Source: a virus. Taken from it: a stretch of DNA of 41,688 nucleotides. The DNA is taken from the UHGV virus genome UHGV-0112358; one strand, 5' to 3'. The notes beneath the pieces were generated by a model that was not told where the DNA came from, did no database searches, and worked only from the letters and a program-made list of their open reading frames with translations. Position numbers and translations under genes: made by a program. Of this stretch, positions 13,918 through 41,688 are shown in pieces. Every line of letters starts with the position of its first letter. The stretch's first letter is position 1.

Positions 13918-14102
13918 ACGCCACAATTCAAACGATACCAGAGCTTCTTATCCAGACACGAGGCAATCAGACCGAAGTGGCGAGGATGCTTTCCTGTGCA
14001 AGAGGAACAGTGCTCAAGTACAACCGAGACAGCAAAGGCGAGCGTCACGTAATAGTTAACGGCGTCCTGATGGTCAAACAAGGCAAGAGGGGAAGACGAT
14101 GA
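13914..14102 (+). CDS. ninH: NinH
   Basis: ...YGNQTEVARMLSCARGTVLKYNRD... resembles recalled lambda NinH. Confidence 0.65.
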   Translation: MNATIQTIPELLIQTRGNQTEVARMLSCARGTVLKYNRDSKGERHVIVNGVLMVKQGKRGRR

Positions 14103-14722
14103 GACTCGAAAGCGTAGCTAAATTTCATTCGCCAAAAAGCCCGATGATGAGCGACTCACCACGGGCTACGGCTTCTGACTCTCTTTCCGGTACTGATGTG
14201 ATGGCTGCTATGGGGATGGCGCAATCACAAGCCGGATTCGGAATGGCTGCATTCTGTGGTAAGCACGAACTCAGCCAGAACGACAAACAAAAGGCTATCA
14301 ACTATCTGATGCAATTTGCACACAAGGTATCGGGGAAATACCGTGGCGTGGCAAAGCTTGAAGGAAATACTAAGGCAAAGGTACTGCAAGTGCTCGCAAC
14401 ATTCGCTTATGCGGATTATTGCCGTAGTGCCGCGACGCCGGGCGCAAGATGCAGAGATTGCCACGGTACAGGCCGTGCGGTTGATATAGCCAAAACGGAG
14501 CAGTGGGGGAGAGTTGTTGAGAAAGAGTGCGGAAGATGCAAAGGTGTCGGCTATTCAAGAATGCCAGCAAGCGCCGCATATCGCGCTGTAACGATGCTAA
14601 TCCCAAACCTTACTCAACCCACCTGGTCACGCACTGTTAAGCCGCTGTATGACGCTCTGGTGGTGCAATGCCACAAAGAAGAGTCAATTGCAGACAACAT
14701 TTTGAATGCGGTCACACGTTAG
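14099..14722 (+). CDS. Q: late-gene antiterminator Q
   Basis: 207 aa, MRLESVAKFHSPKSPMMSDSP... with zinc-finger CRDCHGTG...CGRCKG; near-identical to recalled lambda Q. Confidence 0.9.
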   Translation: MRLESVAKFHSPKSPMMSDSPRATASDSLSGTDVMAAMGMAQSQAGFGMAAFCGKHELSQNDKQKAINYLMQFAHKVSGKYRGVAKLEGNTKAKVLQVLATFAYADYCRSAATPGARCRDCHGTGRAVDIAKTEQWGRVVEKECGRCKGVGYSRMPASAAYRAVTMLIPNLTQPTWSRTVKPLYDALVVQCHKEESIADNILNAVTR

Positions 14723-14764
14723 CGGCATGATTGCCACGGATGGCAACATATTAACGACATGATA

Positions 14765-14793
14765 TTGACTTTTTGAATAAAGTTGGGTAAATT
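14765..14793 (+). promoter_or_regulatory. late promoter pR' with qut region
   Basis: -35 TTGACT (14765-14770), 17-nt spacer, -10 TAAATT (14788-14793), lambda-like. Confidence 0.6.
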
Positions 14794-14829
14794 TGACTCA
14801 ACGATGGATAAATGCACTCGTTAAATAAA

Positions 14830-14858
14830 GCCCTGAGTTAATAGCTCGGGGCTTTTTG
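14830..14858 (+). terminator. tR'-like terminator of short pR' leader RNA
   Basis: GCCCTGAG-ttaatag-CTCGGGGC followed by TTTTT about 35 nt after predicted start. Confidence 0.6.
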
Positions 14859-15832
14859 CGTTTGCACAACAGGTAAGAGCATTCTCCCTTATGGGGCTTG
14901 GCTTAAATGCACCGAGTGCTCTTATCGTTGTGGCAGCACAACGATAGTTTTCGTCAGAGTTGGCGACTTTGCGGGTTTTTAGAAACTGACCACAAAGATA
15001 AATGCAAACGATGATTTGATGTTGATGGCGGCCTAAGAAACCAAAGTCACGGGGTCTTCCGATTCCCCGCTACCAAATTCGGCGCAGTGGCCCGCTGTGA
15101 TTAATAATGGGCACCCAATAATGAGAGCGTTGGACAGTGGCGATGAGATTTCGCAACCCAGGAGCCAATAGATCGGGGATAGTGCGCATAATACCGATTG
15201 AGGTGAGTGCTGGAATAAGCATCGGGAGTCATGACCCAACATGATGCGGGAAAGCCAGCCACCGAGAGACCCGGCAGGGTAAACCGGCCTTCCGCTTGGT
15301 TATCAAGCAATAATAGCGCTCTCATTCGTGGGTAACAACGGGCATGTCGCCTTAGTAAATCCCTCAAGGGTGCGACGCATAGACCGGTACTAGCGTCGCC
15401 GTTAGCTCCACGAAACGGAGCGCACAACAGGTAAGAGTATTTGTAGAGTTCGACTCTCTACCGTGGGATTTTTTCCGCGATGCGAGCCATAAATGCTCTT
15501 TCCGTTGTGCTGAATTAAGCGAATGCCGGAAGCAGAACCGGATCACCAAATGCGTACAGGCGTCATCGCCGCCCAGCAACAGCACAACCCAAACTTAGCC
15601 GTAGCCACTGGCTATCCTGAACTCATCAGTGATAGTTATGCTGCGGCCTTCTACGCATGACCTTCGTGAAAGCGGGTGGCAAGAGGCTGCGCTAACAACC
15701 TCCTGCCGTTTTGCCCGTGCATATCGGTCACGAACAAATCTGATTACTAAACACAGTAGCCTGGATTTGTTCTATCAGTAATCGACCTTATTCCTAATTA
15801 AATAGAGCAAATCCCCTTATTGGGGGTAAGAC

Positions 15833-16156
15833 ATGAAGATGCCAGAAAAACATGACCTGTTAGCCGCCATTCTCGCGGCAAAGGAACAAGGCATCGGGGC
15901 AATCCTTGCGTTTGCAATGGCGTACCTTCGCGGCAGATATAATGGCGGTGCGTTTACAAAAACAGTAATCGACGCAACGATGTGCGCCATTATCGCCTGG
16001 TTCATTCGTGACCTTCTCGACTTAGCCGGACTAAGTAGCAATCTCGCTTATATAACGAGCGTGTTCATCGGCTACATCGGTACTGACTCGATTGGTTCGC
16101 TTATCAAACGCTTCGCTGCTAAAAAAGCCGGAGTAGAAGATGGTGGAAATCAATAA
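15833..16156 (+). CDS. S: holin S (dual-start MKM)
   Basis: [34 protein letters not shown]... near-identical to recalled lambda S. Confidence 0.9.
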
Positions 16157-16616
16157 TCAACGTAAGGCGTTCCTCGATATGCTGGCGTGGTCAGAGGGAA
16201 CTGATAACGGACGACAGAAAACCAGAAATCATGGTTATGACGTCATTGTAGGTGGAGAGCTATTCACTGATTACTCCGATCACCCTCGTAAACTTGTCAC
16301 GCTAAACCCAAAACTCAAATCAACAGCAGCCGGTCGCTATCAGCTTCTTTCCCGTTGGTGGGATTCCTATCGTAAGCAGCTTGGCCTGAAAGACTTCTCT
16401 CCGAAAAGCCAAGACGCTGTGGCATTGCAGCAGATTAAAGAGCGTGGCGCTTTACCGATGATTGATCGCGGTGATATCCGTCAGGCTATCGATCGTTGCA
16501 GCAATATCTGGGCTTCACTGCCGGGCGCTGGTTATGGTCAGTTCGAGCATAAGGCTGACAACCTGATTGCAAAATTCAAAGAAGCTGGCGGAACGGTCAG
16601 AGAGATTGAGGTATGA
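16140..16616 (+). CDS. R: endolysin R (lytic transglycosylase)
   Basis: [35 protein letters not shown]... near-identical to recalled lambda R. Confidence 0.9.
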
Positions 16617-17050
16617 GCAGAGTCACCGCGATTATTTCCGCTCTGGTTATCTGCATCATCGTCTGTCTGTCATGGGCTGTTAATCATTACCGTGATAACG
16701 CCATCGCCTACAAAGACCAGCGCGATAAAGCCACGTACATCATCGCTGACATGCAGAAGCGTCAACGTGATGTGGCTGAACTCGATGCCAGATATACAAA
16801 GGAACTTGCTGATGCTAACGCGACTATCGAAAGTCTCCGTGCTGATGTTTCTGCTGGGCGTAAGCGCCTGCAAGTCGCCGCCACCTGTGCAAAGTCAACG
16901 ACCGGAGCCAGCAGCATGGGCGATGGAGAAAGCCCAAGACTTACAGCAGATGCTGAACTCAATTATTACCGTCTCCGAAGTGGGATCGACAGGATAACCG
17001 CGCAGGTTAACTACCTGCAGGAGTACATCAGGACGCAATGCCTTCGATGA
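16613..17050 (+). CDS. Rz: i-spanin Rz
   Basis: [31 protein letters not shown]...; follows R with overlapping start. Confidence 0.85.
16812..16997 (+). CDS. Rz1: o-spanin Rz1 (embedded lipoprotein)
   Basis: Alternate frame inside Rz; [20 protein letters not shown] lipobox then Pro-rich tail; SD AAGGA. Confidence 0.7.
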
Positions 17051-17224
17051 TAGCGATAATTTTACTCATCATCCTTCACATCTGGCTCTGTAGACAGGGT
17101 GGTGATCACTTCTGGAGTGAATCCAGATTAAACATCTCATTGCTGATGCTTGATATTGAGCATCTGGCGCGCGGTAAGGGGCTGCGTTGAGATAAGAGCC
17201 AGTTCATTACAAATACCAGGATTT

Positions 17225-17250
17225 AGCCTCGCATTCGCGGGGCTTTTTAT
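17225..17250 (+). terminator. rho-independent terminator after lysis cassette
   Basis: GCCTCGC-attc-GCGGGGC followed by TTTTTAT. Confidence 0.5.
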
Positions 17251-17392
17251 ATCTGAATTTCACAGCGCATCTCACGCGCATATTAACGAGAGCCTTTCAG
17301 TAAGCGAGCCTGAGAAATGCCGTTATAGGTGGCGACCTCTCTCGGGCGGCTTTTCTGTGAGACAGGCTCACTTTCTAAAAGGTAAAGACGCT

Positions 17393-17911
17393 ATGAATCA
17401 TCAATTGGCTAATCTCGATTTCCGGGACATGGTGGTTGTTTCTGGTGATCGCGTGATCACAACCTCCCGCAAGGTAGCAGCTTACTTCGACAAGCAGCAT
17501 CACCACATCATTCAGAAAATCGAAAAGCTAGACTGTTCGGATGAATTTCTAACCAGCAACTTTTCGCGGGTTACCTATGAACACAAGGGTAATCAGTATG
17601 TTGAATATGAAATTTCCAAAGACGGCGCTATGTACATCATCATGTCGTTTACCGGCAAAAAAGCTGCCGCCATCAAAGAGGCGTTTATCAAAGCATTTAA
17701 TTGGATGCGTGACAGGCTGATGGAGATGGCTCACTCATACCAAAGAGAGCACAACGAGTTAATGCTGGAGTTCATGAAGGAAAAGGATGTTGCCAGTATG
17801 TCAGGACGCTTGCTGAACCGCTGGGGCAGGATCAAAAAACCGCAACTCATAGCAAGAATCAAAATGCTTGAGCAGCAGGCGCAAATATCGATCCCCGGAC
17901 TGCCAAAGTGA
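17393..17911 (+). CDS. Rha-family phage regulatory protein
   Basis: MNHQLANLDFRDMVVVSGDRVITTSRKVAAYFDKQHHHIIQKIEKL...FTGKKAAAIKEAFIKAFNWM; track ORF starts upstream at 17150. Confidence 0.65.
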   Translation: MNHQLANLDFRDMVVVSGDRVITTSRKVAAYFDKQHHHIIQKIEKLDCSDEFLTSNFSRVTYEHKGNQYVEYEISKDGAMYIIMSFTGKKAAAIKEAFIKAFNWMRDRLMEMAHSYQREHNELMLEFMKEKDVASMSGRLLNRWGRIKKPQLIARIKMLEQQAQISIPGLPK

Positions 17912-18266
17912 CCATTCCAAAGCCCATCTACGGGTGGGCTTGATAATGAAACCGTGATTTACATCCCCACAATCCGGGTATGTAAAAGATAGTTCAGGCG
18001 AGAACGGATTTAACTAAATCTGTGCGCCACCAGTTAACGGCAGTACCACGAAACAACCCAAGCCAGTAAGTGGGGAAATAACACTGGCAGCCACTGAAAG
18101 ATGAACCTCCTGCCTTATGGCAAAAAAGATTCTTTGTGGTGGCGGACTGATGGAAAGACATCGGTTATTGCAGAGGCCATTCAATGAGTGGTCTCGACAA
18201 TGGCTTATACCCTACACGGGATAACTTAACTGATATCCCTTTTAACGGATAAACGGAGCACAAATA

Positions 18267-18857
18267 ATGGCAAAGCTCACCGACAAACAAGAGCTGTTTG
18301 CCCGTGAGTACCTGAAAGATCTGAATGGAACACAGGCAGCTATCAGGGCGGGCTACAGCGAGAAGACCGCCAATGAGCAGGCATCTCGATTATTAGCAAA
18401 TGTTAATGTTCAAAAATTCGTTGCTGAACTTAAAACCGCCCGCGTTGAACAGACGGGCATAGATGCAGCCTATGTTCTTCGTAGATTGGTTGAAATCGAC
18501 CAGATGGATGTGCTTGACATTCTCCTGCAAGACGGTGAGCTAAAACCCATTAAAGACTGGCCTAAGGTATGGCGCACAACGCTATCAGGAATGGATGTCG
18601 TGGAGATGGTATCCGCAGATAGCGCCGCACTTCTGAAGAAAATCAAATGGCCTGATAAGGTCAAAAACCTCGAACTTCTTGGTAAGCATGTTTCTGTTCA
18701 GGCATTTAAAGAGCAAACATCTACAGAAATAACTGGCGCTGATGGTGGCCCTGTTCGTTATGCCGATATGTCAGAAGAGTTACTTGAAGAGAAACTGAAG
18801 GAGCTTGGTAATGGCAGGCGCTCCAATCAGCTTGAATCGAAACGCTCAGATTTATGA
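18267..18857 (+). CDS. terminase small subunit
   Basis: MAKLTDKQELFAREYLKDLNGTQAAIRAGYSEKTA... typical small-terminase N-terminus; immediately upstream of TerL. Confidence 0.75.
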   Translation: MAKLTDKQELFAREYLKDLNGTQAAIRAGYSEKTANEQASRLLANVNVQKFVAELKTARVEQTGIDAAYVLRRLVEIDQMDVLDILLQDGELKPIKDWPKVWRTTLSGMDVVEMVSADSAALLKKIKWPDKVKNLELLGKHVSVQAFKEQTSTEITGADGGPVRYADMSEELLEEKLKELGNGRRSNQLESKRSDL

Positions 18858-20331
18858 GTTGCACAAAGAGCTGGCTATCCGCTCAGCAAGAAAAAACCTT
18901 CTCGATTTCACTTTGTACACTAATCCGCAATACGAAACAGGTTGGTTTAACGAGCTGCTTTGTGCTGAGCTAGATCACTTTCTGGATGAAGTTAAAGCCG
19001 GAAACATGCCCAGGCTAATGGTGTTTGCCCCTCCGCGCTCAGGAAAGAGTGAGTTGTGCTCTCGCCGCTTCCCGGCGTATGTGTTAGGACAGCATCCATC
19101 ATGGAACATTATCTCGTGCTCATATTCTTCTGACCTGTCAGACCGAATGAGCCGTGACGTTAAACGCATTATCACCTCTGACAAGTACGCTGATGTTTTC
19201 CCTGACGTGAAAATACCTTCAGGACGTAGTTTGGCGGGAGGCATCAACAAAACCGAGCTATGGGAACCAGTTGATGCCAAAGGCGAACTACACGGCGGCT
19301 CATATCGTTCTGCTGGCGTTAACGGTGGTATCACAGGTCAGGGTATGAATATTGGGGTTATTGATGACCCCGCGAAAGATTACAAAACCGCATCGTCTCC
19401 AACTTACCAGGAAGCGGTGATGGACTGGTACGACACGACATTCTTCACGCGTGTTGACCCGAAGATAAACGGCATCGTCATCATTCTGACACGCTGGCAT
19501 CAAAACGATCTCGCCGGACAGTTATTAAAACTAGCTGAAGAGGGTGGGGAACGATGGCGCGTAGTTAGCTTCCCAATGGAAGCTGAAAAGGAGGAGATCC
19601 ATGAACTCAACGGTAACGTATATCGACTGCGCAATCCCGGTGAAATTCTGTTCCCTGAGCGCATGCCGAGAGAGTTCGTAGAGAAATGCAAACAGCGCGG
19701 TTCCCTTGTATGGAATGCTCTTTATCAGCAAAGACCAACCGCCAAAGGCGGGGGGCTTATTAAGTCTGAATGGTTTGGTGAATATCTGGTACTCCCTCCC
19801 ATGCAATGGCGTGCCGTCTATGGAGACACCGCACAGAAAACAAAAGAGGTCAACGACTTCTCAGTATTCGAGCACTGGGGGCTTGGTACTGACGGGTACA
19901 TCTATCTGATAGATATGATTCGCGGTAAATGGGAGGCCGATGAATTACAACGCCGTGCTGTTGCATTCTGGGAAAAGTGCAAAACTCTGAAGAATGGGCC
20001 GCTTCGCCACATGGCGATAGAGGACAAGTCATCTGGCACAGGCCTGATACAGAACATCCGTAAAAAAGCGATATGCCCCATCAAAGCAATTCAGCGCGAT
20101 AAGGATAAGTACACGCGACTGATGGATGTACAGGGTTATATCGAGTCCGGTTACATCAAGTTGCCCAGCAGCGCACCATTCATCAACGACTTCCTCGTTG
20201 AGATGGAAGCTATTAATCCTGATTTCAATACGCACGACGACCAGCTTGATCCGATGATGGATGCCATCGATGAGATGAAAAATGGCAATGGTCCGTTACG
20301 TATATCTGAAGACCTTTTGAGGCTCGCATAG
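18811..20331 (+). CDS. terminase large subunit
   Basis: Walker [12 protein letters not shown], nuclease-domain acidic residues; ATG 18811 with SD AAGGAG. Confidence 0.85.
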
Positions 20332-21866
20332 TGTTTAATTTTTTGAGAAAGAAAAAATCTGAGCCTCAGAAAGAAGAGGCGAAACAGCCAATGTCTCTGG
20401 CGAATGTTCTTGCGATTATTAACGAGCAGGAGCGAATTAAAAATGAAGGCGAGGCATTGCGTAGAATTGAGCGATACGTACCCCCGCCAGGCGTTATTCC
20501 TGAACATATTGGGGAGTCAGCTCTGGCGATGGACTCCACGCCGTACAGTTACCTTAACTCAGCAAACATCACCGCATATGGCTACGGTGGATTTCCCGGC
20601 TACCCATATCTGTCTCAACTTGCTCAGTTGCCGGAGTATCGCAAGATTACTGGCACGATAGCAGAAGAGATGACGCGAAAATGGATTGAGCTGAAGCATG
20701 TAGGTAAAGACGATGGTGACGACAAGGCCGATAAGATTCGCCAGCTTGACGACGCATTAAAGCGTTTCAGAGTGCGAGAGAAGTTTCGCGAGGCGGCGGA
20801 ACATGACGGTTACTTCGGGCGCGGACAGATTTATATCGACGTGAAGACGCCAAGCGGTAACTCAGCCTGGCTGGTTCCCGACGAACTGGATAAGAAGCTC
20901 TATATCAGCCCACGCAAGATTACCAAAGGAAGCCTGAATGGTTTCCGCGTTATCGAGGCCATGTGGACATACCCTGGTGTGTATAACGCTGATAACCCTC
21001 TCAGTCCTGATTTCTTCAATCCATCTGAATGGTATGTCATGGGGCGTACTGTTCACGCCAGCCGTATGTTGACAATGATTTCTCGCCAGGTGCCAGACAT
21101 TCTCAAAGCGGCGTACAACTTCGGCGGCTTGTCGCTGAGTCAGATGGCAGAGCCATACGTGCAGAACTGGTTGAGAACACGTGACAGCGTTAGCGATCTG
21201 GTTCATTCGTTTGTGGTCCATGGGCTGAAGACGAACATGCAGAATGCCTTGTCTGGAATTGCAGACCCAAACCTGTTTATGCGTGCCGAGCTATTCAATA
21301 AGGTTCGCGACAATCGCGGAATGTTCCTTATTGATAAGGATGGAGAAGAATTCTTCCAGTTTGTGACAAGTCTGTCCGGAGTTGATGCTCTTCAGGCGCA
21401 AGCGCAGGAACAAATGGCATCGGTATCAAGCATTCCTCTGGTTAAGCTCCTTGGCATCACTCCTAACGGGCTAAACGCTTCATCTGATGGCGAAATCCGC
21501 GTCTTCTATGACTCAATACACGCCATGCAGGAGAATCTGTTCAGGGTGCCGCTGAAAACGGTGCTGGATGTTATCCAGTTGAATGAATTTGGCGATATTG
21601 ACCCTGACATTGATTTTGAATTCCTGCCGCTGTACGAGCTTACAGAAGCAGAGAAAGCCGAGATCATGAAACATCAGTCTGAGGCTGATAAGAACTATGC
21701 CGAAGCTGGCGTGTTCGATCTTGATGCAATAAGAAGCATGCGCCAGTCGGATAAGGCCAGCCCATACCACATGATGGAATCTGAATATGACGAAGAAGAG
21801 TACGAAAACGAGTCCATCGAAGAAGGATTCGAAGACCCGGAAAACACTTCGTCCAGTCAGAGCTAA
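20331..21866 (+). CDS. portal protein (Mu gp29-like)
   Basis: 511 aa following TerL and preceding MuF-like gene; acidic C-terminus. Confidence 0.65.
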
Positions 21867-22605
21867 CGCCGGAGTTCATGAGTGGTATCGCTCTGAGCTT
21901 CTTAAACTGGTTAGGGAGATGGATAAGTCATACCGATACTGGCTTGAGGGCGCATACAAAAACAACATGGCGATGGATTCCAGTCCTGCGAATGAGTTAA
22001 GGCGCAGATTATCCAGACTAGGCATGCAGTGGGAGCATAAATTCAATGAACTGGCTAAGAAACTGGCTGATCGCTTCGTTGATAAGACACTGCGCAACAC
22101 CGACGTTTCGTTACACTCAGCGTTAAAGGCTGGCGGATTTACCGTTAAGTTCACAATGAATGACGAGCTTAAGAACGTGATGCAGGCTGTCGTTAACGAG
22201 AACGTCAACCTGATTAAATCCATACCTGAACACTATCACACACAGGTTGAGACGATAGTCATGCAGTCTGTCAGCCGTGGTCGTGACCTTGGCTATCTCA
22301 CTGATGAACTGGTTAAGCGATATGGCATTACTCGCAGACGCGCTGAGACGATTGCACGCGACCAGAACAACAAAGCTACAGCGGTAATTCAGTCTGAACG
22401 GCAGAAGAAGTTAGGCATCACCAAAGGAATCTGGCGTCACTCACACGCCGGGAAGCAGCCAAGGCCGTCCCATGTGAAAGCTGACGGTAAAGAGTTCGAC
22501 CTCGATAAAGGGCTGTATCTCGATGGTGAATGGGTGCTGCCTGGAGAGGCTATCAACTGCCGTTGTACGTGGTCTCCTGTTATCCCTGGGGTAGATAGAA
22601 AATGA
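21787..22605 (+). CDS. Mu F-like head morphogenesis protein
   Basis: C-terminal ...[25 protein letters not shown]...CRCTW motif; start uncertain, 80-nt overlap with portal. Confidence 0.7.
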
Positions 22606-23966: not shown

Positions 23967-23969
23967 GAA

Positions 23970-24449: not shown

Positions 24450-24452
24450 TAC

Positions 24453-25844: not shown

Positions 25845-25856
25845 CGGGAGCAGCAA

Positions 25857-32594: not shown

Positions 32595-33587
32595 ATGACT
32601 GAAAAGAAAAGTGGTGAAGGGAAAGCTAAGGGCGGAATCGCTCGCGCAAAGTCGCTGACTAAAGAGCAGCGTTCTGAAATAGCAAAGAAAGCAGCGGCTG
32701 CAAGATGGAAGGATAAACCATTAATTGCTACGCATAAGGGATCGTTCCAGCATGAATTCGGGATTGATGTTGAGTGCTATGTGTTAAATGATGATAACAA
32801 AACTGCCGTTATTAGCCAGAGAGGCATGGGAGAAGCGATTGGTCTTGGCGAAGGTGGCAGCAGGTTGCCAAAGTTTATTCAGGGGAAAACTATTTCTCAG
32901 TATATCGGGCATGAATTAAGGGCAAAACTTGAAAATCCTCTTATTTTTCAATACAAACAGGTGGGCACGAACACACCAGCTAACCCTGTAATACATGGCT
33001 ACGATGTAACAATCTTAATTGATTTATGTCGAGCAATCTCTAACGCTAAAGCTGAAGGTAAGTTGCTTTCTAGTCAGGAAGGGATTGCTAAGCAAGCCAG
33101 GATAATTATTGATGCATCAGCCAAGGCGGGAATTCAGGGGCTTGTTTATGCTTTGGCAGGGTATGACAGAACAAAAGAAGAAGTAATTCAAGCATATAAG
33201 CGATATGTTGCTGAAGAGGCTCGTGAGTATGAAAGAGAGTTCACCCCTGAACTTTATGAGCATTGGTATCGTCTGTATGGTATAGACAAACCAGTTAGAG
33301 GGCGACCGTGGGCGTTTAAATATCTTACGATAGATCACATTTACTACCCATTAGCCAGAAGTGAAGGAAAGGTATTTAATTTAGCAAAAACGTCAAAAGA
33401 AGAGAAAGGCAGCAAAAACGATAAAATACACCAGTTTTTATCAGAGGTTGGAGTTAAAGCTCTTAGAACCCAAATAGGTAAGGTTACTGGTATTGCAATG
33501 GTTTCTGATACTCGAGAAGAGTATGAGAAATACATAGATGAAAAGGTTATTGGACAAAGAACCATCGACTTAAAAGATAAAGAATAA
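32595..33587 (+). CDS. KGG-motif / P63C-like protein of unknown function
   Basis: ATG 32595 after SD; N-terminus GKAKGGIARAKSLTKEQRSEIAKKAAAARW; track ORF starts upstream at 32493. Confidence 0.55.
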   Translation: MTEKKSGEGKAKGGIARAKSLTKEQRSEIAKKAAAARWKDKPLIATHKGSFQHEFGIDVECYVLNDDNKTAVISQRGMGEAIGLGEGGSRLPKFIQGKTISQYIGHELRAKLENPLIFQYKQVGTNTPANPVIHGYDVTILIDLCRAISNAKAEGKLLSSQEGIAKQARIIIDASAKAGIQGLVYALAGYDRTKEEVIQAYKRYVAEEAREYEREFTPELYEHWYRLYGIDKPVRGRPWAFKYLTIDHIYYPLARSEGKVFNLAKTSKEEKGSKNDKIHQFLSEVGVKALRTQIGKVTGIAMVSDTREEYEKYIDEKVIGQRTIDLKDKE

Positions 33588-33616
33588 GAAAAACCCACCG
33601 TCAGGTGGGTTTTTTG
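33588..33616. terminator. bidirectional terminator between convergent genes
   Basis: A-run, ACCCACC-gtca-GGTGGGT, T-run. Confidence 0.6.
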
Positions 33617-33921
33617 TTTAGCAGTTCTCTTAACTTTTCGTTTTGCTCTCTGAACTTTTCCTGTATTTCTTTTTGCATGGCGATAACCTGGGCTTGAAGT
33701 TGAACTAGCGCATCAACATTTAGCGGAACCGAGACGCTGTTGATTTTGTCTGCTATTTCCCCAAGAGTATTTTCTGCATTCAAGGCATCTTCCAGTATCT
33801 GCACAATCTCTGAGTTCATTGATCTGCCGTTACGTTTAGCTCGTTCAGCTATAGCATCTCGCATTCCGTCAGGAAAACGGAGGTTGAACTTGTCGTAGTC
33901 TTTTACTTGTTTTTCGGCCAT
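33601..33921 (-). CDS. mnt: Mnt/Arc-type ribbon-helix-helix repressor
   Basis: KFNLRFPDGMRDAIAERAKRNGRSMNSEIVQ RHH motif; divergent from arc-ant pair; track ORF extends to 33960. Confidence 0.6.
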   Translation of the reverse strand: MAEKQVKDYDKFNLRFPDGMRDAIAERAKRNGRSMNSEIVQILEDALNAENTLGEIADKINSVSVPLNVDALVQLQAQVIAMQKEIQEKFREQNEKLRELLNKKPT

Positions 33922-33939
33922 TGCAAATCTCTCAAAAAA

Positions 33940-34012
33940 ACCATGGTGCCATATTGCCATACGATTTCAATGGTGGCATTATGGCCTTCATGGCGTCACT
34001 TTGGCACCAAAT
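33940..34012. promoter_or_regulatory. divergent promoter/operator region of immI-like switch
   Basis: Inverted half-sites GGTGCCA / TGGCACC repeated between the mnt-like and arc-like starts. Confidence 0.4.
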
Positions 34013-34027
34013 AAAGGAGATTAGATA

Positions 34028-34201
34028 ATGCAAGATACACTTTTCACTGAGCGCAAAAATATCAAACTCAACCTTCGCCTTCCATCACGGCTGAATGAAG
34101 ACCTTCGCCGCCTGGCGGAAATGGACTGTATATCTCTGAACTCTGCAATTGTTCGTTTGCTGGCAAAAGGTGTTAGGGAAGAGGTGGCGAATGGTCGCTA
34201 A
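34028..34201 (+). CDS. arc: Arc-like ribbon-helix-helix repressor (57 aa)
   Basis: [36 protein letters not shown] motif; SD AAAGGAG; below track cutoff. Confidence 0.6.
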
Positions 34202-35207
34202 AAACAGCGAAGCCCCAATGGCTGCAACCATTGAGGCTTCTAAATTACCAGTTAACTACGAGAAAACTGATATGAATAGTATAGCAATTTTAGAAGCAGT
34301 GAACACCTCTTACGTACCCTTCAACGGTCAGCAAATTATCACCGCCATGGCTGCAGGAGTTGCATATGTTGCGATGAAGCCAATCGTTGAAAACCTCGGA
34401 ATGAGCTGGGGTACTCAGCAACAAAAACTTATGAAACAACTAGATAAGTTCAACTGTATTCATATGAATATGGTTGCTGCTGATGGGAAGCTTCGTAAGC
34501 TACTCTGCCTTCCTTTGAAGAAGTTAAATGGATGGCTGTTCAGCATCAACCCTGAGAAAGTTCGTGCTGACATCCGCGATAAACTGATTCAGTACCAGGA
34601 AGAATGCTTTACTGTGCTGCATGACTACTGGACTAAAGGCCATGTGGTTAACCCGCGCAAAGCTAAAAAGGCGTTGCCGGGCAAAATCACCACTGAACAG
34701 CAGGAAGCCATTAAACAACTTGTCATGAGTCGCGGTCAGTCTCTGCCAAAAGAAAAACAGGCGAAGGCGATGATCACCATGTGGTCGTCACTGAAATCCC
34801 ATTTTGGATGTTCGTACAAAGAAATCAGTGAGGAGCAGTTTACCGAAGCACTGTCACTTGCAGCTCGAGTTCCACTTGAAGGTGAGTTCATTAGCAAACA
34901 AGAGAAGAGCACCAACGAGCTTTCCGCAAAAGAAGCAAACAGCCTTGTATGGTTATGGGATTATGCCAACCGCTCACAGGCATTATTCCGCGAACTGTAT
35001 CCGGCATTAAAACAAATTCAATCGAACTATTCCGGCAGATGCTACGACTACGGTCATGAGTTCTCGTATGTTATCGGAACGGCGAGAGACGTTTTAATCA
35101 ACCACACACGAGATGTTGATATCAATGAGCCAGACGGACCAACAAATCTTTCTGCATGGATAAGGCTTAAGAATAAAGAATTACCGCCTTCTGTTCATCT
35201 GTATTAA
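34191..35207 (+). CDS. ant: antirepressor (Ant-like, AntA N-terminal domain)
   Basis: [23 protein letters not shown]... resembles recalled P22 Ant; ATG 34191 with SD GAGGTGG overlapping arc end. Confidence 0.65.
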
Positions 35208-35291
35208 TGACGCATCTGGTGGTGAAAAAAAACCGCCAGTGTGCAGCTGGCGGCCTATGTCACACCCTTACTACCACATAAGGAATGCCTA

Positions 35292-36020
35292 ATGACTTTT
35301 AAGAATGTAGCAAACATCGGATCCGTTGTCACGGATAAAACCATTGATAGCCAGTACCTGTTAGAGATGGTCAATCATGCTCGTAGACAGTGCGGGGAAA
35401 AAGAAGTCCGCAATAACGACTTTATTGCACGCATTAAGGATGAACTTGAAGGTGAGCACTACGAAATTTTCGTAGTTCAAAAATCAAACAAGACAACTTC
35501 TGAAAAAGTTGTTATGTCAATTAAGCAAGCCCTTCGAGTGGCTGCTCGTGAATCTAAAGCTGTTCGCCGCTCACTTGTAGACCAACTTGAAAGTATGCAA
35601 GAAGCGCACATTAAAAGCGGTAAATCGTCTAGTGGACTTGTTGAGTATCGCCAGGCGCGAACATTGAAAATGACGGTTGAAGCTGTTACCAATCTGTTCG
35701 ATTTGATGCCAAATCTTGCGCCGGAAGCAAAGCAGACTGCGGCAGCAAGCATAATCAACCCGATCGTTGGTTTTAATGCAATACCTCTTCCAGCAATAGA
35801 AGAGCATTACTACTCAGCAGGGGAGGTTGCAGAGCAGCTTGGAGTAACGGCCAACAAGATTGGTCGCATTGCTAACGCAAACAACCTCAAAACTGAGCAG
35901 TACGGGAAGTTCTTCCTGGATAAATCTGCGCATTCCAGCAAACAGGTGGAAGCATTCCGCTACAATGCGGAAGGTGTTAAAGCACTACAACACCTGGTTC
36001 ATGGGAGTAATGTTGCATAA
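35292..36020 (+). CDS. hypothetical DNA-binding protein (possible antirepressor-like)
   Basis: ATG 35292 with SD AAGGA; HTH-like segment near C-terminus; track ORF starts 35241. Confidence 0.45.
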   Translation: MTFKNVANIGSVVTDKTIDSQYLLEMVNHARRQCGEKEVRNNDFIARIKDELEGEHYEIFVVQKSNKTTSEKVVMSIKQALRVAARESKAVRRSLVDQLESMQEAHIKSGKSSSGLVEYRQARTLKMTVEAVTNLFDLMPNLAPEAKQTAAASIINPIVGFNAIPLPAIEEHYYSAGEVAEQLGVTANKIGRIANANNLKTEQYGKFFLDKSAHSSKQVEAFRYNAEGVKALQHLVHGSNVA

Positions 36021-36241
36021 TGGCAAAGAAAAAATATGGCATTATGCCGCCAAGAATCAAAGGAAGAGCCAGGGTAAAAGGCGATGCTGGGAGATATCAC
36101 ATTCTTGGTGTTTTGTGGCATGAGAGAGCTTTAATTTTAAGCAGACCTCATGGGTACATTGAAAAGGTATCTATAGATAGAATTGAGATTCTTCCCCTTA
36201 CTCCTGAAGAAGAAGAAACGTACGGACTTTTTGATAACTAG
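36020..36241 (+). CDS. hypothetical protein (73 aa)
   Basis: ATG overlaps upstream stop; basic N-terminus. Confidence 0.4.
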   Translation: MAKKKYGIMPPRIKGRARVKGDAGRYHILGVLWHERALILSRPHGYIEKVSIDRIEILPLTPEEEETYGLFDN

Positions 36242-36291: not shown

Positions 36292-37107
36292 ATGAGCATA
36301 ATCGATTTAAACACAGCAGACATATTCAATGCTATCGGTGGTGGCTCTCCGCTTTCGATCATCGACAGCGTTCTGCATCCCCAGTATGTGATTCGTGACA
36401 GGGAAACTGGCGAGGTTGCTCTTGAGTTCAGTGGTATGGCATCCGTACAGCCAAGCGGAAGGGCGCAAATAACAAATGCTCCGGTGGAGAAAGGGAAATA
36501 CCAGTCCATCAACAAAGTTAAAGAACCAGCCAGAGTAAGATGCGCAATCATCGTAAATGGTCTTACTGGTTTTTCCGGCAATATCCCGAATATTTTCGAT
36601 CTCACATTCACAAGCCAGAACAGCACGCTGAACACAATCAAAACGATGCTGTCCTCTGCAAAAACATACGATATTGAAACGCCAAAGGAAACTCTGGAGA
36701 GTTTCGACCTTGTTGACCACTATTACGAAGTTAACTCTCAAAAAGGGGTGACTCTTCTGACGGTTTATCTTGATTTTCAGGAGGTCATTCAGCAAATGGA
36801 GGTTATCCTCTCTGGATCTCAGTCAGAACAGAAGCCAACGGATAACAATAAGTCACAGGGAGATGTAGGAGTTGATCCGCAAATAACCAATGGCGGAGCC
36901 AGGGAATCTACTGTCGATGAGCTAAGTAAATCATGGTCATCACTGAAGTCATCTGTTGGCGACATCACTGGAAAAATCTCCGACACAATCAAGACTGAAT
37001 TTCAGAGTGCTCTTGATACGGTGTCCAAACCAATACTCGAAGTTACAAACAGCGCAACAAAAAAAGCGGCAGATATTGCAAAAAATATAGTTAAGGCGAG
37101 CACATGA
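36292..37107 (+). CDS. putative baseplate/tail protein
   Basis: 271-aa ORF with SD GGAGAG resuming tail gene block. Confidence 0.5.
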   Translation: MSIIDLNTADIFNAIGGGSPLSIIDSVLHPQYVIRDRETGEVALEFSGMASVQPSGRAQITNAPVEKGKYQSINKVKEPARVRCAIIVNGLTGFSGNIPNIFDLTFTSQNSTLNTIKTMLSSAKTYDIETPKETLESFDLVDHYYEVNSQKGVTLLTVYLDFQEVIQQMEVILSGSQSEQKPTDNNKSQGDVGVDPQITNGGARESTVDELSKSWSSLKSSVGDITGKISDTIKTEFQSALDTVSKPILEVTNSATKKAADIAKNIVKAST

Positions 37108-37406
37108 TTACAGTATCTGTTCTTCCCAGCAAATCTCAGTCCATTTCGGTAAGTCTGGCTGGTCAGCAATGTAATATAAAACTTGTTCAGCGACAGAGTT
37201 TTATGTACATGGATTTAACTGTTAATGAAGTCCCAATTATGCAGGGCGTTCCATGCCTGTATGGGAATAAGATGGTAAGATATTCCTACCTTGGATTTAA
37301 GGGAGACCTTATTTTCATTGATAACGATGGGGAGTCGGACCCGCAATGGGAAGGCTTGGGTGGCCGTTACTTGCTGTATTACATTGAGGAAAACGAGCTT
37401 GTATAA
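37104..37406 (+). CDS. hypothetical tail protein
   Basis: 100-aa ORF, ATG overlaps upstream stop. Confidence 0.45.
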   Translation: MITVSVLPSKSQSISVSLAGQQCNIKLVQRQSFMYMDLTVNEVPIMQGVPCLYGNKMVRYSYLGFKGDLIFIDNDGESDPQWEGLGGRYLLYYIEENELV

Positions 37407-37417
37407 AAATCACAGTC

Positions 37418-38280
37418 TTCGGTTTGACTTCACGAATGAATCATCAGCATTTGATAAAAATGGAAACAATAAAATCTCCATCAGAAATGTTAAGTCAACA
37501 GTATCCCTGAACTTTGTTACCGGTCGGGGAGGTGCTCAGGCTGATATATCTCTTTACGGCTTAGGAATTGAAAGACTTGCTGATATATCAGGGAAGGCTG
37601 ATGGTATTGTTGGGGAAGGTCAGAAGTTAAATGTTGAGGTATTTGCTGATGATTCTCTTGTTTTCTCCGGCACGATGCTTTCATCAATAGCAAACATGAA
37701 TTCTGCTCCTGAAAGCAGTTTGATGATAACAGCCTCTTCTAATGTTGATTTACAGAACATGCCAGCAAGTCCGTTTACAGCGCAGGGTGCGCAAAGTGTT
37801 GAAGATGTCATCTCATCCATTTGTGCAAGTGCAGGTTATGAGGCTGTGTTTAATAATGTAAAAGGGATGACAACATCAGGAAGTCCGCATTTTGAAGGAA
37901 GTGTTTTTGAACAACTTTATAGGGTCTGTTCAGATTATGGACTTGCGATGTCAGCCACGCCACCGACAAAAGTAGAGTTCTGGCCTTCAGAAAAAAACAG
38001 AGACGATGTAATTCCGTTTATATCCAGAGAATACGGACTTGTTGGATATCCTGTATTTTCAAATGGGGGACTGATGTTTCAGTCGCAATATTCATCTCTC
38101 CTTTGCATTGGAAGATATGTGGATATCAAAACAGAACTACCACATGCAAGCGGAAGGTATAAGTTAACCTCCGTTCGGCATGAATTATCATCATGGATGC
38201 CAAATGGTTCATGGCACTCAATATGTATTGCCGCCAGAACAGCGGAACAAAGAGCAGAGGCGCAACAGAATAATGGATAA
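37418..38280 (+). CDS. putative baseplate hub protein (Mu gpP-like); start uncertain
   Basis: Track ORF 37291..38280 overlaps previous gene by 116 nt; TTG at 37418 preceded by GAGGA is the first start after upstream stop. Confidence 0.45.
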
Positions 38281-38965
38281 GCAACTATTTACTCCAACGA
38301 CTGCTCAGGTAAGTGAGGCTCAATCTCAGGAATATATTTTTGAGATGATGATGTCTGGATATTTCTTCATTGAGTTAGCGATAGTTCATGAAGTCAGGGG
38401 GGAAGCACCGGATTTAGTTGTTGACGCTCTTCCTTTACTAACCAGAACAGACCGTACAGGAAAAATGATTTCTAACTCGGTTTTATATGATATTCCTGTA
38501 TGGCGGTTGCAGAGAGGCAACAGTGCTGTAATTATGGACCCTGTGGCAGGTGATATTGGTCTGATTGCTGTCTGCGACAAAGACACATCACTGGTAAGAA
38601 AAAATCGTAAAGAATCAGTACCTGGAAGCAAAAGGCGACACAGTAAATCTGATGCAATTTATCTTGGTGGGGTATTAAATATTGCACCTACTCAATTCAT
38701 TGAATTTGCTGATGGTGCAATAAACATAACCACACCTAACCCACTAAATATTAAATGTTCATCGTTAAATATTGATGCTCCTAATGGGGTCAACATGAAT
38801 ACTCCTTTACTTAAAGTTAGCGGTGATATTCAGGATAACGCAAGTTCACAGTCATCTACTGTTAAAAATTTAAGGGACAACTATAACAATCACAAACATT
38901 CTGTTTCAGGAGTACAAAGTGGTGGGTCAACAATAAATTCCAATGCAACGGATAAACCGACATGA
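38273..38965 (+). CDS. putative baseplate spike protein
   Basis: ATG 38273 overlapping upstream stop; track ORF starts 38180. Confidence 0.45.
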   Translation: MDKQLFTPTTAQVSEAQSQEYIFEMMMSGYFFIELAIVHEVRGEAPDLVVDALPLLTRTDRTGKMISNSVLYDIPVWRLQRGNSAVIMDPVAGDIGLIAVCDKDTSLVRKNRKESVPGSKRRHSKSDAIYLGGVLNIAPTQFIEFADGAINITTPNPLNIKCSSLNIDAPNGVNMNTPLLKVSGDIQDNASSQSSTVKNLRDNYNNHKHSVSGVQSGGSTINSNATDKPT

Positions 38966-39321
38966 CATACAGAACTATGCAACTGGACACTTCTACGTGG
39001 GACTTGACGCTTGACGGAAATGGCAATCTGGCGATCGCAGAAGAATCATATTCTGTTGCTCAGGATGTCGCCAGTGCGTGCCTGGTGTTTTCAGGAGAGT
39101 GTTATTACGACAATACACTTGGGATCCCATGGAAGGCAGAAGTTCTTGGCAGGCGACCATCTCCTGGTTTTATTGCTCAGAAAATGCAGGCTGAAGCACT
39201 CAAATTACCCGTCGTTGAGGATGCTCTGGCATCAGTTTTCTTTGACAAGAATACACGCACAACTCGCGGCACAATCCGCGTTACAGATATCAATGGTAAT
39301 ATTGCACAGGCCACCTTATGA
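38962..39321 (+). CDS. baseplate wedge protein (gp25/W-like)
   Basis: 119-aa ORF immediately before J-like gene. Confidence 0.5.
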   Translation: MTYRTMQLDTSTWDLTLDGNGNLAIAEESYSVAQDVASACLVFSGECYYDNTLGIPWKAEVLGRRPSPGFIAQKMQAEALKLPVVEDALASVFFDKNTRTTRGTIRVTDINGNIAQATL

Positions 39322-40547
39322 CGATATTAAATACGGCTGTTCCTGATGTAACCATCACTGAAAACGGTCTTTCAGTTCCCGACATAGCGGATGTGCTGGC
39401 GGGAAGACTTACAGACATGTCAACGGCTCTTGGCGGTGGTGCTAGTCAATCACTGAGTTCACCGCAAGGGCAGATCGCACAGTCTGACACTGAAATTATT
39501 GCTCAGGAATACGACAAACTTCTTTGTTTGTTTAATCAAATTAACCCTGACTTCTCAACTGGCAGATTCCAGGACGGGATTGGTCGGATTTACTTTATGG
39601 AGCGGATCGCTGCTCAGGGGACAGTTGTTACAGCAACATGCATTGGTCAGGTTGGAACAACAATACCAGCAGGGAGTACCGCTGTGGATACGAGCGGGTA
39701 TATATATCAGTCAATTGATAATGCTGTAATACCCTCATCAGGCTCTGTTGATGTGCAGTTTGTCAACACAACAACCGGGCCGATTCCGTGTGCCGCCGGT
39801 TCACTGAACCAGATTTATCGAGCCGTTTCCGGGTGGGATGCTGTAAATAATATTAGCCCTGGAGTCGTTGGTGTTGATGTTGAATCACGTATCGCCTTTG
39901 AAACTCGCCGGAGACAATCAGTTGCCAGAAACAGTCGAAATCAGGACGCATCTACATTAGCAGCGTTACTTGCGACTGATGGTGTGCTTGATGCTTACGT
40001 ATGGTCAAACAGAACTGCAGAAACAGTAAATAAAGGAACAACGAATTTCCCGATTCTTGCGCATTCTGTTTATATTTGTGTTTATGGCGGGGCTGATACG
40101 GATGTTGCCGAGTCAATATTCAATACTTATAACCCCGGCGCCAATATGAATGGTAATACAACGTTCACTGTTTACGATAACGTTAATTACATGCCGCCAT
40201 ATCCATCTTATGTAATGCAATGGCAAAAGGCATCACCTACGCGGGTTTACTTTAAGGTAAATGTCGATGCTTCACTAAATCCCCCAAGTGATATTACTAA
40301 ACAAGTAAAGGAAATGATTGTCACTGTGTTCAATGGAGGGTATGAGGGTATTGGAAAGTCACGAATTGGTTCGACGATAAATGCTGGTAAATACTATGCC
40401 CCTGTTATTTCAATATCTCCTGATACAGTTGGAATTTTGTCTCTTGAAGTTTCCATAGATGGTTCACTATACGGACCTGCTGTGACTATGGGCATAGACC
40501 AGGTTCCAACCATTCAGGAATCAGATATCACTGTTACATTATCGTAG
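39318..40547 (+). CDS. baseplate J-like protein
   Basis: 409-aa ORF in baseplate block. Confidence 0.55.
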   Translation: MTILNTAVPDVTITENGLSVPDIADVLAGRLTDMSTALGGGASQSLSSPQGQIAQSDTEIIAQEYDKLLCLFNQINPDFSTGRFQDGIGRIYFMERIAAQGTVVTATCIGQVGTTIPAGSTAVDTSGYIYQSIDNAVIPSSGSVDVQFVNTTTGPIPCAAGSLNQIYRAVSGWDAVNNISPGVVGVDVESRIAFETRRRQSVARNSRNQDASTLAALLATDGVLDAYVWSNRTAETVNKGTTNFPILAHSVYICVYGGADTDVAESIFNTYNPGANMNGNTTFTVYDNVNYMPPYPSYVMQWQKASPTRVYFKVNVDASLNPPSDITKQVKEMIVTVFNGGYEGIGKSRIGSTINAGKYYAPVISISPDTVGILSLEVSIDGSLYGPAVTMGIDQVPTIQESDITVTLS

Positions 40548-40557
40548 GGGGAGCGGT

Positions 40558-41196
40558 ATGTGGGAAGACACAATTCTTACCCAATACTCGGCAAGCAAAA
40601 AATTATTATCTATCATTGACACTTTTAATCAGGCGGTAAGCCTCGATGACTTCACAGATGAATTCATCAAAAAGGTATGGGATTTGACAACGTGTGAATC
40701 TTTTGGCCTTGATATGTGGGGGAAAATAGTAGGTATAAGCAGATACATTGTCGCTTCAATTGACAGTGACTCATTTGGGTTTAGTGAGGCTGACGATGGA
40801 GGCACTGATTATCCTTCACCATTTAATGATTCTCCTTTTTATGGTGGCGTGCAGGAAACAACAAATGTCAGGCTCGGGGATGACGCTTACAGAACATTAA
40901 TACTCTGCAAGGCTTTTGCTAACATCAGTGTGGCAACCATTCCTGATATAAATAAATTTCTTAAAATACTTTTTTATCAACGAGGCAGAGCATATTGTGT
41001 CAATTACAGAGATATGACCATTGGTATAAATTTTGAGTTCTCACTTGCTCCCTACGAAGAATCGATTTTAACAAATTACGATGTGACTCCTGTACCAAGT
41101 GGAGTTCAGGTAAATATCAAACAAATTGTAAGCCCATACTTTGGTTTTGCTACAGATGCATATCCATTTAATGACGGCACATTTTATAGGAATTAA
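40558..41196 (+). CDS. putative tail protein (gpI-like)
   Basis: 212-aa ORF with SD GGGGAG before tail fibre gene. Confidence 0.5.
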   Translation: MWEDTILTQYSASKKLLSIIDTFNQAVSLDDFTDEFIKKVWDLTTCESFGLDMWGKIVGISRYIVASIDSDSFGFSEADDGGTDYPSPFNDSPFYGGVQETTNVRLGDDAYRTLILCKAFANISVATIPDINKFLKILFYQRGRAYCVNYRDMTIGINFEFSLAPYEESILTNYDVTPVPSGVQVNIKQIVSPYFGFATDAYPFNDGTFYRN

Positions 41197-41197
41197 G

Positions 41198-41688
41198 CAT
41201 GAATCGTTCTGACTCACCTAAAAAACAACCTAAGCCATTTGGAGTTAATGGACAGAGAGGGGCAATATTGCCAACCACCCCTGCAGGTGATAACTCAGCA
41301 TCGTATGAACAGGGGTTTCCTCCAATAACAATGATCCTGAAATCTGCTGGCGGTTTGCCGCCAAAAGGCCAGGATATGAACCAAATTTTATACGAACTTT
41401 CTGCTCTGGGGAGATGGTCGAGCACCGGGGCGCTGAATACTTTTGATTCTGAATTTGCTTCGGAGATTTCTGGATATCCGTCAGGGGCGATGCTCATCTC
41501 GGACGATGGGGAAAGAATATTTATTAACACAACAGAAGGAAATCTATCTGATCCAAACAGCAATGGTGCCGGGTGGAAAGATGTTCTTTCATACCTTGGT
41601 TTGGGGGAAGGCTCTGCATTACCGGTTGGGGTGCCTGTTCCGTGGCCTTCAGCCACTCCGCCAACAGGCTGGCTGAAATGCAATGGTG
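41198..41688 (+). CDS. tail fibre protein, N-terminal part (runs off window end)
   Basis: ATG 41198; open to window end; absent from ORF track because no stop. Confidence 0.5.

Follow-up and report, generated by a model that had tools for sequence, protein, structure and literature searches.

The PhiPLPE-like 'dwarf myoviruses', as described in 2012, combine a conserved structural module with a variable and often lambda-like lysogeny/replication module in genomes of 43-50 kb (PMC3391216). A lambdoid regulatory backbone and a contractile tail also occur together in SfV, SfI and phiP27, and SfI has been reported as a lambdoid phage with myovirus morphology (PMC3636060). Here we describe virus genome UHGV-0112358, a stretch of DNA of 41,688 nucleotides analysed at its full length (the window), in which lambdoid regulatory and lysis genes are followed by genes for a contractile-tailed virion. 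We are confident that the window covers the greater part of a temperate lambdoid phage, or prophage, of Escherichia with a small-myovirus-type virion module, and that it is not a lambda/Mu hybrid. An initial annotation of the sequence had described a lambda-type late-regulation and lysis cassette joined to contractile-tail virion genes that are not lambda's, and the alignments bear this out.

This architecture, a lambda-like backbone with a small-myovirus virion module, is already known, and the window is a further Escherichia representative of it. By protein comparison the virion module appears to be of the type of the PhiPLPE group (Aaphi23, ZF40), with the Edwardsiella phages GF-2 and Edno5 (genus Gofduovirus) and Pantoea phage PA-1 as its current representatives, and its predicted structural counterparts are E217, Pa193, Pam3 and XM1. 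The modular mosaicism of lambdoid phages is a textbook matter and the biological weight of the finding is small; its use lies in documenting, from Escherichia, a virion type for which the phage collection searched contains no closely similar E. coli isolate, a close isolate being one with a megablast-level match or more than 75% sheath identity.

Architecture, virion module and relatives

The left 14 kb of the window is a typical lambdoid early region. Patches of it share 92-98% identity with many P22-like and lambda-like coliphages, and over several kilobases the window is 97-98% identical to Gally, N7 and HK620. Its gene types and their order match those of lambda. Pfam and PHROGs assignments identify an N-like gene, Erf, SSB, CI (HTH plus S24 peptidase), CII, O, a DnaC-like loader and Dam, followed by NinB, NinX, Roi, RusA and Q. 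The window has the lambdoid succession of CI and CII, O with a helicase loader, nin genes, Q, pR' and lysis genes, all ahead of the virion genes. Two of these genes, both on the minus strand, are placed as follows:

6685-7104, minus strand: N-like gene
7367-8101, minus strand: cI

From 14099 to the end of the window all long ORFs are on the plus strand, with the exception of two genes in an accessory island. The virion genes are as follows:

18267-18857, plus strand: small terminase (TerS), Terminase_2 (SF6/SPP1 G1P-like); Pfam E=1e-37, PDB matches to the Pam5 and SF6 small terminases
18805-20331, plus strand: large terminase (TerL), Terminase_6N/6C (Pfam)
20331-21866, plus strand: portal, Phage_portal_3/DUF1073; Pfam E=1e-91, PDB matches to E217 gp19, Pa193 gp19, Pam3 and XM1
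21787-22605, plus strand: head morphogenesis protein with Phage_Mu_F domain; Pfam E=3e-15, no tblastn match to Mu gp30
22740-25493, plus strand: DUF2213 scaffold/protease-like protein, cement/minor capsid protein and major capsid protein; Pfam DUF2213, XM1_gp53, Phage_cement
25497-27592, plus strand: head-tail connectors, namely DUF4054, Neck1-like, E217_gp28-like (weak) and Phage_tail_terminator_9 (Pfam, PHROGs)
27589-29525, plus strand: tail sheath (DUF3383) and tail tube (E217_Gp32); Pfam E=1e-106 and 5e-17
29525-30147, plus strand: tail assembly chaperone pair (Pfam Phage_TAC_15)
30144-31919, plus strand: tape-measure-like lytic tail protein (phrog_873, phrog_2013, phrog_2276)
36292-41196, plus strand: baseplate genes, namely Dit-like, Pam3_gp18 plug, hub, spike, wedge, Baseplate_J and DUF2612 (Pfam, PHROGs); 41-78% amino acid identity to Edno5, in synteny
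41199-41688, plus strand: tail fibre, N-terminal part only, running off the window (phrog_12796, phrog_1396)

Both the order of these genes and the families themselves (DUF1073 portal, DUF2213, cement, DUF3383, Pam3_gp18, Baseplate_J and DUF2612) are those of the small-myovirus module. The portal, capsid and sheath match, by sequence, the solved structures of E217 and Pa193 (Pbunavirus), and the portal also those of cyanophage Pam3 and Vibrio phage XM1, a comparison that concerns virion proteins only: the major capsid protein (phrog_264) matches the E217/Pa193 capsids (PDB 9b40 and 8frs) and the sheath matches the sheath proteins E217 gp31 and Pa193 gp32, with PDB sequence matches of the virion proteins ranging from E=1e-3 to 3e-32. 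The cement, tube and plug proteins and, weakly, the collar protein fall into Pfam families based on E217, Pam3 and XM1. TerL has no PDB sequence match. E217, Pa193, Pam3 and XM1 are lytic or non-lambdoid phages, and the genomes of E217 and Pa193 are about 66 kb. In the chaperone pair, a T TTT TTA heptamer at 29908-29914 lies in the zero frame of the chaperone gene and in its overlap with a -1 ORF ending at 30147, and we predict a classic programmed -1 frameshift of the G/GT type at this site. The homologue of the tape-measure-like protein is annotated in E. coli genomes as an SLT-domain transglycosylase.

Megablast of 18267-41688 against 50,697 phage records returns no match to the virion genes; only the ant/arc island and its KilA-like gene (JEP4) are matched. 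Relatives are nonetheless found at the protein level. Sheath amino acid identity is 75% to Edno5, 73.5% to GF-2 (compared by its sheath only), 66.5% to Vibrio phage IKEMa6-1 and 40% to PA-1, about 37% to a group of Klebsiella phages, and 32-34% to small myoviruses of Burkholderia, Aeromonas, Xanthomonas and Ralstonia.

Of the 24 virion genes from portal to DUF2612 that lie outside the island, 22 have counterparts in Edno5 in the same order, at 28-79% amino acid identity; the collar-like protein, terminator, sheath, tube (72%), chaperones and most baseplate proteins fall at 53-79%, the hub at 41% and the tape measure at 28%. Ahead of this module Edno5 has an int-rec-cIII-cI-cro-cII-O-P-nin-Q-lysis region, a lambda-like early region that includes Q. 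Edno5 differs from the window in its head genes (30-50% amino acid identity), in its TerS and TerL, which have no detectable similarity to those of the window, in its Q, which is of another type (31%), in its lysis genes, again without detectable similarity, and in its host. By blastn it covers only about 9.4 of the 41.7 kb, at 64-72% identity and mainly in the tail region. The genus convention of the ICTV is about 70% nucleotide similarity over the genome, and the window does not fall within Gofduovirus.

PA-1, an unclassified Pantoea phage with contractile tail genes, matches 23 of 23 genes from Rha to DUF2612 in the same order, at 25-80% amino acid identity. Its early region is lambda-like, with cIII, cI, cro, cII, O, P and nin genes, and includes N. 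TerL is 79.5% identical between the two, in contrast to 25-54% for the rest of the module, and PA-1 also differs in having an unrelated lysis cassette, no annotated Q, and no copy of the non-coding stretch that precedes terS in the window. The PhiPLPE group (Aaphi23, ZF40, Aeromonas phage 56 and PY100; Comeau et al. 2012) shares the bipartite design, although its members are distant in sequence and no E. coli elements were covered in its description (PMC3391216).

TerL itself is 49.5% identical to its homologues in Aaphi23 and S1249 and 39.6% identical to that of XM1, with no match in Edno5 or Mu. TerL stands far closer to PA-1 (79.5% identity) than do its neighbours on either side, TerS (46%) and the portal (40%). 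This suggests that the terL gene has been exchanged independently of the other genes of the virion module, which is itself a mosaic.

The same module is present in E. coli chromosomes. The block from capsid to tube occurs in 20 of 5426 complete E. coli genomes (about 0.4%), at 95-99% nucleotide identity and always in the chromosome. Two such prophages are instructive. In that of strain EC16 a lambda-type Q-S-R cassette (96.6% nucleotide identity) precedes the module and the integrase adjoins a tRNA-Arg gene; in that of KCJ3K291 another type of Q stands before the same virion module, together with a lambda-family S-R-Rz cassette. This difference in Q type ahead of one and the same module confirms that regulatory and virion modules assort independently.

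These prophages also bear on the integrity of the window. Its database affinity changes abruptly at 18275 and its G+C content falls to about 0.40 in parts of the tail region, as might be expected if two adjacent or nested prophage remnants, or the two parts of an assembly chimera, met at terS. We consider this extremely improbable. First, the window holds a single set of functions in canonical lambdoid order without duplicated modules, and neither attachment sites nor an integrase were found at the joint in the window gene list or by Pfam. Second, the identical arrangement is present in independent finished chromosomes. Third, the isolated phages Edno5, PA-1 and GF-2 share the virion module, and Edno5 and PA-1, whose genomes were inspected, share the layout as well.

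A different concern is that the architecture is as described but that the prophage is defective and no longer makes particles. The window is incomplete at both ends, the module is rare (the 20 of 5426 genomes above), and no isolated E. coli phage in the collection searched carries it. Nonetheless, every virion gene to be expected is an intact ORF whose family match spans its full length, the -1 frameshift site is conserved, and the genes are 97-100% identical across unrelated strains, and we therefore regard a defective prophage as unlikely.

Several points weigh against reading the window as a lambdoid phage with a PhiPLPE-type virion. Its assignment to the PhiPLPE group is by way of relatives in common, namely Aaphi23 in the case of TerL and Aeromonas phage 56 in that of the sheath (34%), rather than by a formal phylogeny. 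The window has neither an integrase nor the end of the tail-fibre region, so that its completeness is open to doubt, and with respect to inducibility and particle formation the element is known here from sequence alone. Two details of the biology proposed below are similarly qualified. Read-through dependent on Q is predicted from sequence identity to lambda, and the picture of a single late transcript is simplified, given that two minus-strand genes of the island at 31928-36241 lie inside the late operon. The proposal of headful packaging rests on relatives, and the terminase is unlike that of Edno5, the sole relative with end-mapping data.

Comparison with Mu and SfV

The initial annotation had described the morphogenesis genes as Mu-like and without lambda head or tail genes. 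The latter point holds: of the 35 window proteins compared by tblastn with the complete Mu and lambda genomes, those encoded from 18267 onward have no match to lambda, so that no structural homology of lambda type emerges, and the window has none of lambda's head, tail or terminase genes, bor gene or cos region. The terminase, portal, MuF-domain, sheath, tube and baseplate genes that it listed are also all present and on the plus strand, as confirmed by Pfam. However, the comparison with lambda, Mu and SfV came out against their being Mu-like.

Lambdoid phages with Mu-type tails do exist, and the annotation of SfV lists similarity to Mu gpL, N, P and gp45-48. A lambda/Mu hybrid of the kind of SfV, SfI and phiP27, in which a lambdoid phage carries Mu-type morphogenesis genes, might therefore seem an attractive interpretation, since the window encodes Phage_Mu_F and Baseplate_J proteins and the latter has a marginal match to Mu gp47 (21.9% identity over 128 amino acids, E=0.004). 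This is the only match between corresponding proteins; two others below E=0.1 extend over 40-47 amino acids of non-corresponding regions (E=0.014 and 0.078). In the same test SfV, as a positive control, matches Mu strongly, with E=2e-82 for the sheath, 5e-54 for the hub and 7e-40 for the gp47-like protein. The window matches the virion genes of SfV in nothing but a marginal similarity of the spike to gpV (E=0.001). Some 30 virion proteins thus have no counterpart in Mu or SfV beyond marginal matches, and the tail gene families of SfV and Mu are unlike those of the window.

The families themselves point the same way. The Mu morphogenesis genes belong to Phage_Mu_Gp27, Portal_Mu, Phage_Mu_F, Mu-like_Pro, Mu-like_gpT, Phage_sheath_1, Tail_tube, GpP/Gp44 and Baseplate_J, and only 2 of 10 such families are common to the window (Phage_Mu_F, E=3e-15, and Baseplate_J, E=4e-11). 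Both of these domains are widespread and, since they occur in Mu as well as in this non-Mu module, they do not discriminate between the two. The remaining components (portal, protease/scaffold, capsid, sheath, tube, hub and TerS) belong to other families than their Mu counterparts. Where Mu has the Portal_Mu protein gp29 (PF06074), the window has a DUF1073 portal without a tblastn match to it; the gpT head protein and gpI protease are replaced by DUF2213 and a phrog_264 capsid; the Phage_sheath_1/1C/domII protein gpL and the PF10618 tube protein gpM have their places taken by DUF3383, without a match to Mu, and E217_Gp32; and instead of a gp44/GpP hub and a Mu gp27 small terminase there are a phrog_196 hub and Terminase_2. 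A lambda/Mu hybrid is therefore highly improbable, and a lambdoid phage with a small-myovirus virion module is strongly preferred. The comparison is of use in correcting a tempting mis-annotation: names such as 'MuF' and 'Baseplate J/gp47' do not make a module Mu-like.

Late control, lysis and the joint at terS

The features between the early region and the virion module are as follows:

14099-14722, plus strand: Q antiterminator, lambda type; 206 of 207 amino acids as in lambda Q (99.5%), Pfam Antiterm E=1e-57
14765-14793, plus strand: pR' late promoter, TTGACT-17-TAAATT, with Q-binding/pause region (promoter scan, lambda alignment)
14823-15493, plus strand: non-lambda segment; a break in lambda homology, with only patchy matches in other phages
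15833-16156, plus strand: holin S, S107/S105 dual-start type; 98.1% amino acid identity to lambda S
16140-16616, plus strand: endolysin R; 97.5% amino acid identity to lambda R
16613-17050, plus strand: Rz i-spanin, a chimera; 58.6% amino acid identity to lambda Rz
16812-16997, plus strand: Rz1 o-spanin, embedded in the +1 frame, lipobox LGVSAC (frame translation)
17225-17244, plus strand: terminator-like hairpin 3' of Rz (scan)
17394-17911, plus strand: Rha-family regulator; Pfam Phage_pRha and ORF11CD3, ATG with ribosome-binding site at 17394
17912-18266, plus strand: conserved lambdoid non-coding stretch of 355 bp, with no credible ORF, upstream of the first packaging-region gene
18266-18275, plus strand: recombination joint of 10 nt, AATGGCAAAG (local blastn, alignment)

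Homology with lambda at the nucleotide level is confined to two blocks, in which Q, pR'/qut, S, R and the 5' third of Rz are conserved at 93-96% over 2.1 kb. The first, lambda 43875-44609, corresponds to window 14089-14822 at 96.3% identity, and the second, lambda 44847-46235, to window 15494-16861 at 93.0%. In the alignment with lambda 44510-44610, pR' has the same -35 and -10 hexamers, and the early transcribed and pause region is identical to about +17. Between the two blocks, from pR'/qut to the region upstream of S, a segment of 671 bp (14823-15493) stands in place of 237 bp of lambda (44610-44846). A terminator scan places two terminator-like hairpins in it, at 14827-14855 (strong) and 14922-14947. 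An accessory gene or tRNAs in this gap between Q and S, as in Stx and SfI phages, were considered and rejected, there being no convincing ORF and no tRNA; ARAGORN finds no tRNA or tmRNA anywhere in the window. The first of the hairpins, a terminator with a 13-bp stem, starts about 27 nt past the predicted pR' start, and a Q-independent transcript would be about 60 nt long. The 6S RNA of lambda is 194 nt.

The lysis cassette is of the functional type of lambda's, with a holin, an endolysin and an embedded two-component spanin. All of Q, S, R, Rz and Rz1 had been put down as near-identical to lambda; this is correct for Q, S and R (99.5%, 98.1% and 97.5% amino acid identity) and incorrect for the spanins, at 58.6% for Rz and about 37% for Rz1 (23 of 63 aligned positions). 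The low value for Rz arises because lambda homology stops at 16861, within the gene: the first ~83 codons lie in lambda-homologous DNA, and amino acids 1-39 differ from lambda at two residues, followed by a 7-amino acid deletion and scattered changes, whereas the distal part follows the type of Gally and P22-like phages. Distal Rz, Rz1 and the 671 bp after pR' are accordingly the portions of this region unlike lambda. The P22-like phage Gally shares 98% identity with the window over 15662-18160, and in HK106 a rho-independent terminator is annotated at the relative position that matches the hairpin at 17225-17244.

We propose the following scheme for late expression. By homology with lambda, the Q protein would load onto RNA polymerase at pR'/qut, and the modified polymerase would read through the terminators at 14827, 14922 and 17225, so that the transcript may extend over the holin, endolysin, spanin and Rha genes and then over the packaging, head, tail and baseplate genes, which run for about 23 kb in the same orientation. 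A promoter scan between 14800 and 19000 finds no strong consensus promoter. With the late genes in a single unit transcribed under Q, whatever virion module follows the lysis cassette should be expressed, and at the right time; for this reason virion modules could be exchanged at gene boundaries, and the exchange seen here would be tolerated.

The Rha gene occupies a variable accessory-gene slot, in which HK620 has a KilA-N gene, g341c a GIY-YIG nuclease, and the EC16 prophage no Rha gene, with a small hypothetical ORF after Rz. Rha and the non-coding stretch that follows are shared with Gally and HK620 (P22-like) and HK106 (HK97-like) at 95-98% identity, and both belong to the lambdoid side. 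Gally, HK620, Sf101, HK106 and HK022 resemble the window in the non-coding stretch and the Rha/KilA-N/GIY-YIG slot. The non-coding DNA ahead of hkbM in HK620 shares 95.4% identity with window 17906-18275, and HK106 shares 95.9% with window 17913-18275. However, the virion modules of these P22-like and HK97-like lambdoids are of podovirus P22 type or siphovirus HK97 type, and homology to them ends at 18275.

The joint with the virion module can thus be placed precisely. Lambdoid homology ends at 18275, nine bases into terS, and homology with the terS of PA-1 begins at 18266; the joint is the gene-boundary point 18275/18276, at the third codon of terS. The initial annotation had put the junction in 17051-18266. 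The Rha gene and the ORF-free stretch of 355 bp that it described there do exist, but the joint is a point at 18275/18276 and is not spread over that interval. The exchange point is now narrowed to a 10-nt stretch at the terS start codon. Other joints are found at 14822/14823, 15493/15494 and 16861/16862 (inside Rz), inside terS, and around terL.

The terS gene is a mosaic in its own right. It agrees with PA-1 at 100% over the first 55 nt, and relative to terS of the KCJ3K291 prophage its N-terminal, DNA-binding third is 62-67% identical at the nucleotide level and the remainder 97-100%. In KCJ3K291 (locus 13042-14131) the HNH gene upstream of terS opens with a copy of the window-type terS 5' end, ATGGCAAAGCTCAC.

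Non-coding stretch, packaging and the accessory island

The stretch at 17912-18266, or sub-blocks of it, is present in 212 phage records at 84-99% identity, 7 of the 212 falling at 80-90% and the rest at 90% or above; a distant-mode blastn search yields no homologue with less than about 84% identity. Its place, in the genomes inspected, is between the lysis/accessory slot and the first packaging-region gene. The stretch precedes P22-type terminase regions with hkbM/orf80 in the pac phages HK620, g341c and P22, and the gp74 HNH gene in the cos-packaging, HK97-like HK106, HK022 and HK97; Sf6 and ES18 also carry it.

The initial annotation suggested that this stretch may hold the packaging site. 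Its position is favourable, since it lies directly upstream of terS and pac sites of SPP1-type phages begin immediately upstream of terS, and it is unusually self-complementary (z=-5.6). Nonetheless, it seems very unlikely that the pac or cos site of this phage lies here. First, at 90-99% identity the stretch fronts three unrelated terminase systems. Second, the N-terminus of PA-1 TerS is near-identical (one difference in the first 36 residues) and yet its upstream DNA is unrelated and the stretch is absent. Third, the stretch is retained in the KCJ3K291 prophage, where the N-terminal domain of TerS is different and an inserted HNH gene separates the stretch from terS. Fourth, the stretch is itself subject to insertion: a Gp49-family gene lies within it at ~18162 in EC16, Gally has about 257 bp inserted (insertion zone ~18160-18176), and in IME10 and Sf6 it is matched as two pieces over about 760 bp, which suggests an insertion there as well. 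It is this dissociation of the TerS N-terminus and the stretch in both directions, in PA-1 on the one hand and in two E. coli prophages on the other, that makes a packaging site here unlikely.

We consider it most likely that packaging would be headful, with a pac site that lies within terS or beside it and not in the stretch that precedes the gene. TerS is SF6/SPP1 G1P-like by Pfam and by PDB sequence matches. The genome of Aaphi23 is reportedly circularly permuted and terminally redundant, according to Resch et al. 2004. Five newly sequenced genomes of the PhiPLPE group were reported to be circularly permuted (PMC3391216), and Edno5, a temperate phage with myovirus morphology, is circularly permuted with no defined termini by PhageTerm (PMC6372524).

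What, then, might the stretch be? The sense strand folds at -119 kcal/mol (z=-5.6, with none of 100 shuffles as stable) and the antisense strand at z=-2.1. Against 117 consecutive windows of 355 nt, the stretch ranks second for folding, and only the ori region in the O gene is as extreme. A structured late-mRNA leader with a function of its own, possibly with two domains that meet at ~18162, the point of accessory-gene insertion, is a tentative suggestion and on the whole a doubtful one. An IMG/VR anchor scan for covariation covered at least 120 contigs and gave 20 unique full-length variants, all at least 90% identical; among these there is one compensatory change, and 8 substitution columns keep the predicted pairing whereas 7 break it. 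Variable columns make up 17 of 204 paired positions as against 37 of 152 others, the structure having been derived from the same sequences. Rfam yields nothing credible, either at gathering scores over the whole window or at E<=1 over 14700-18400. If such a leader exists, it could act as a processing or stability element, in translational control of the first packaging-region gene, or as a linker for module exchange. Alternatively, the stretch might simply consist of remnants of accessory-gene terminators.

The strongest signal of the folding scan is at 8876-9230, inside O (z=-5.5). This is presumably the replication origin with its iterons and inverted repeats, and it acts as an internal positive control of the scan.

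The tail operon is interrupted between the tape measure and the baseplate genes by an accessory island with a G+C content of about 0.40-0.45:

31928-36241, mixed strands: immI-like island; Pfam Arc, P22_AR_N/C and P63C, and phrog_1726

It comprises an orphan ORF (minus strand), a P63C protein, Arc (minus strand), a P22-type Ant, a second antirepressor-like gene and a small ORF, and it is 94% identical at the nucleotide level to the ant regions of Stx phages. The orphan ORF (31928-32386, minus strand, 152 amino acids) has no match in Pfam, PHROGs or PADLOC, and PADLOC returns no match for any of 10 accessory ORFs. In KCJ3K291 and EC16 a hypothetical gene of 474 bp is found at the position of the orphan ORF, which has no tblastn match there. 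Edno5 has an Arc/Ant island at the same position, and in EC16 the content of the island is swapped, with Panacea-domain and LexA-family proteins in its place.

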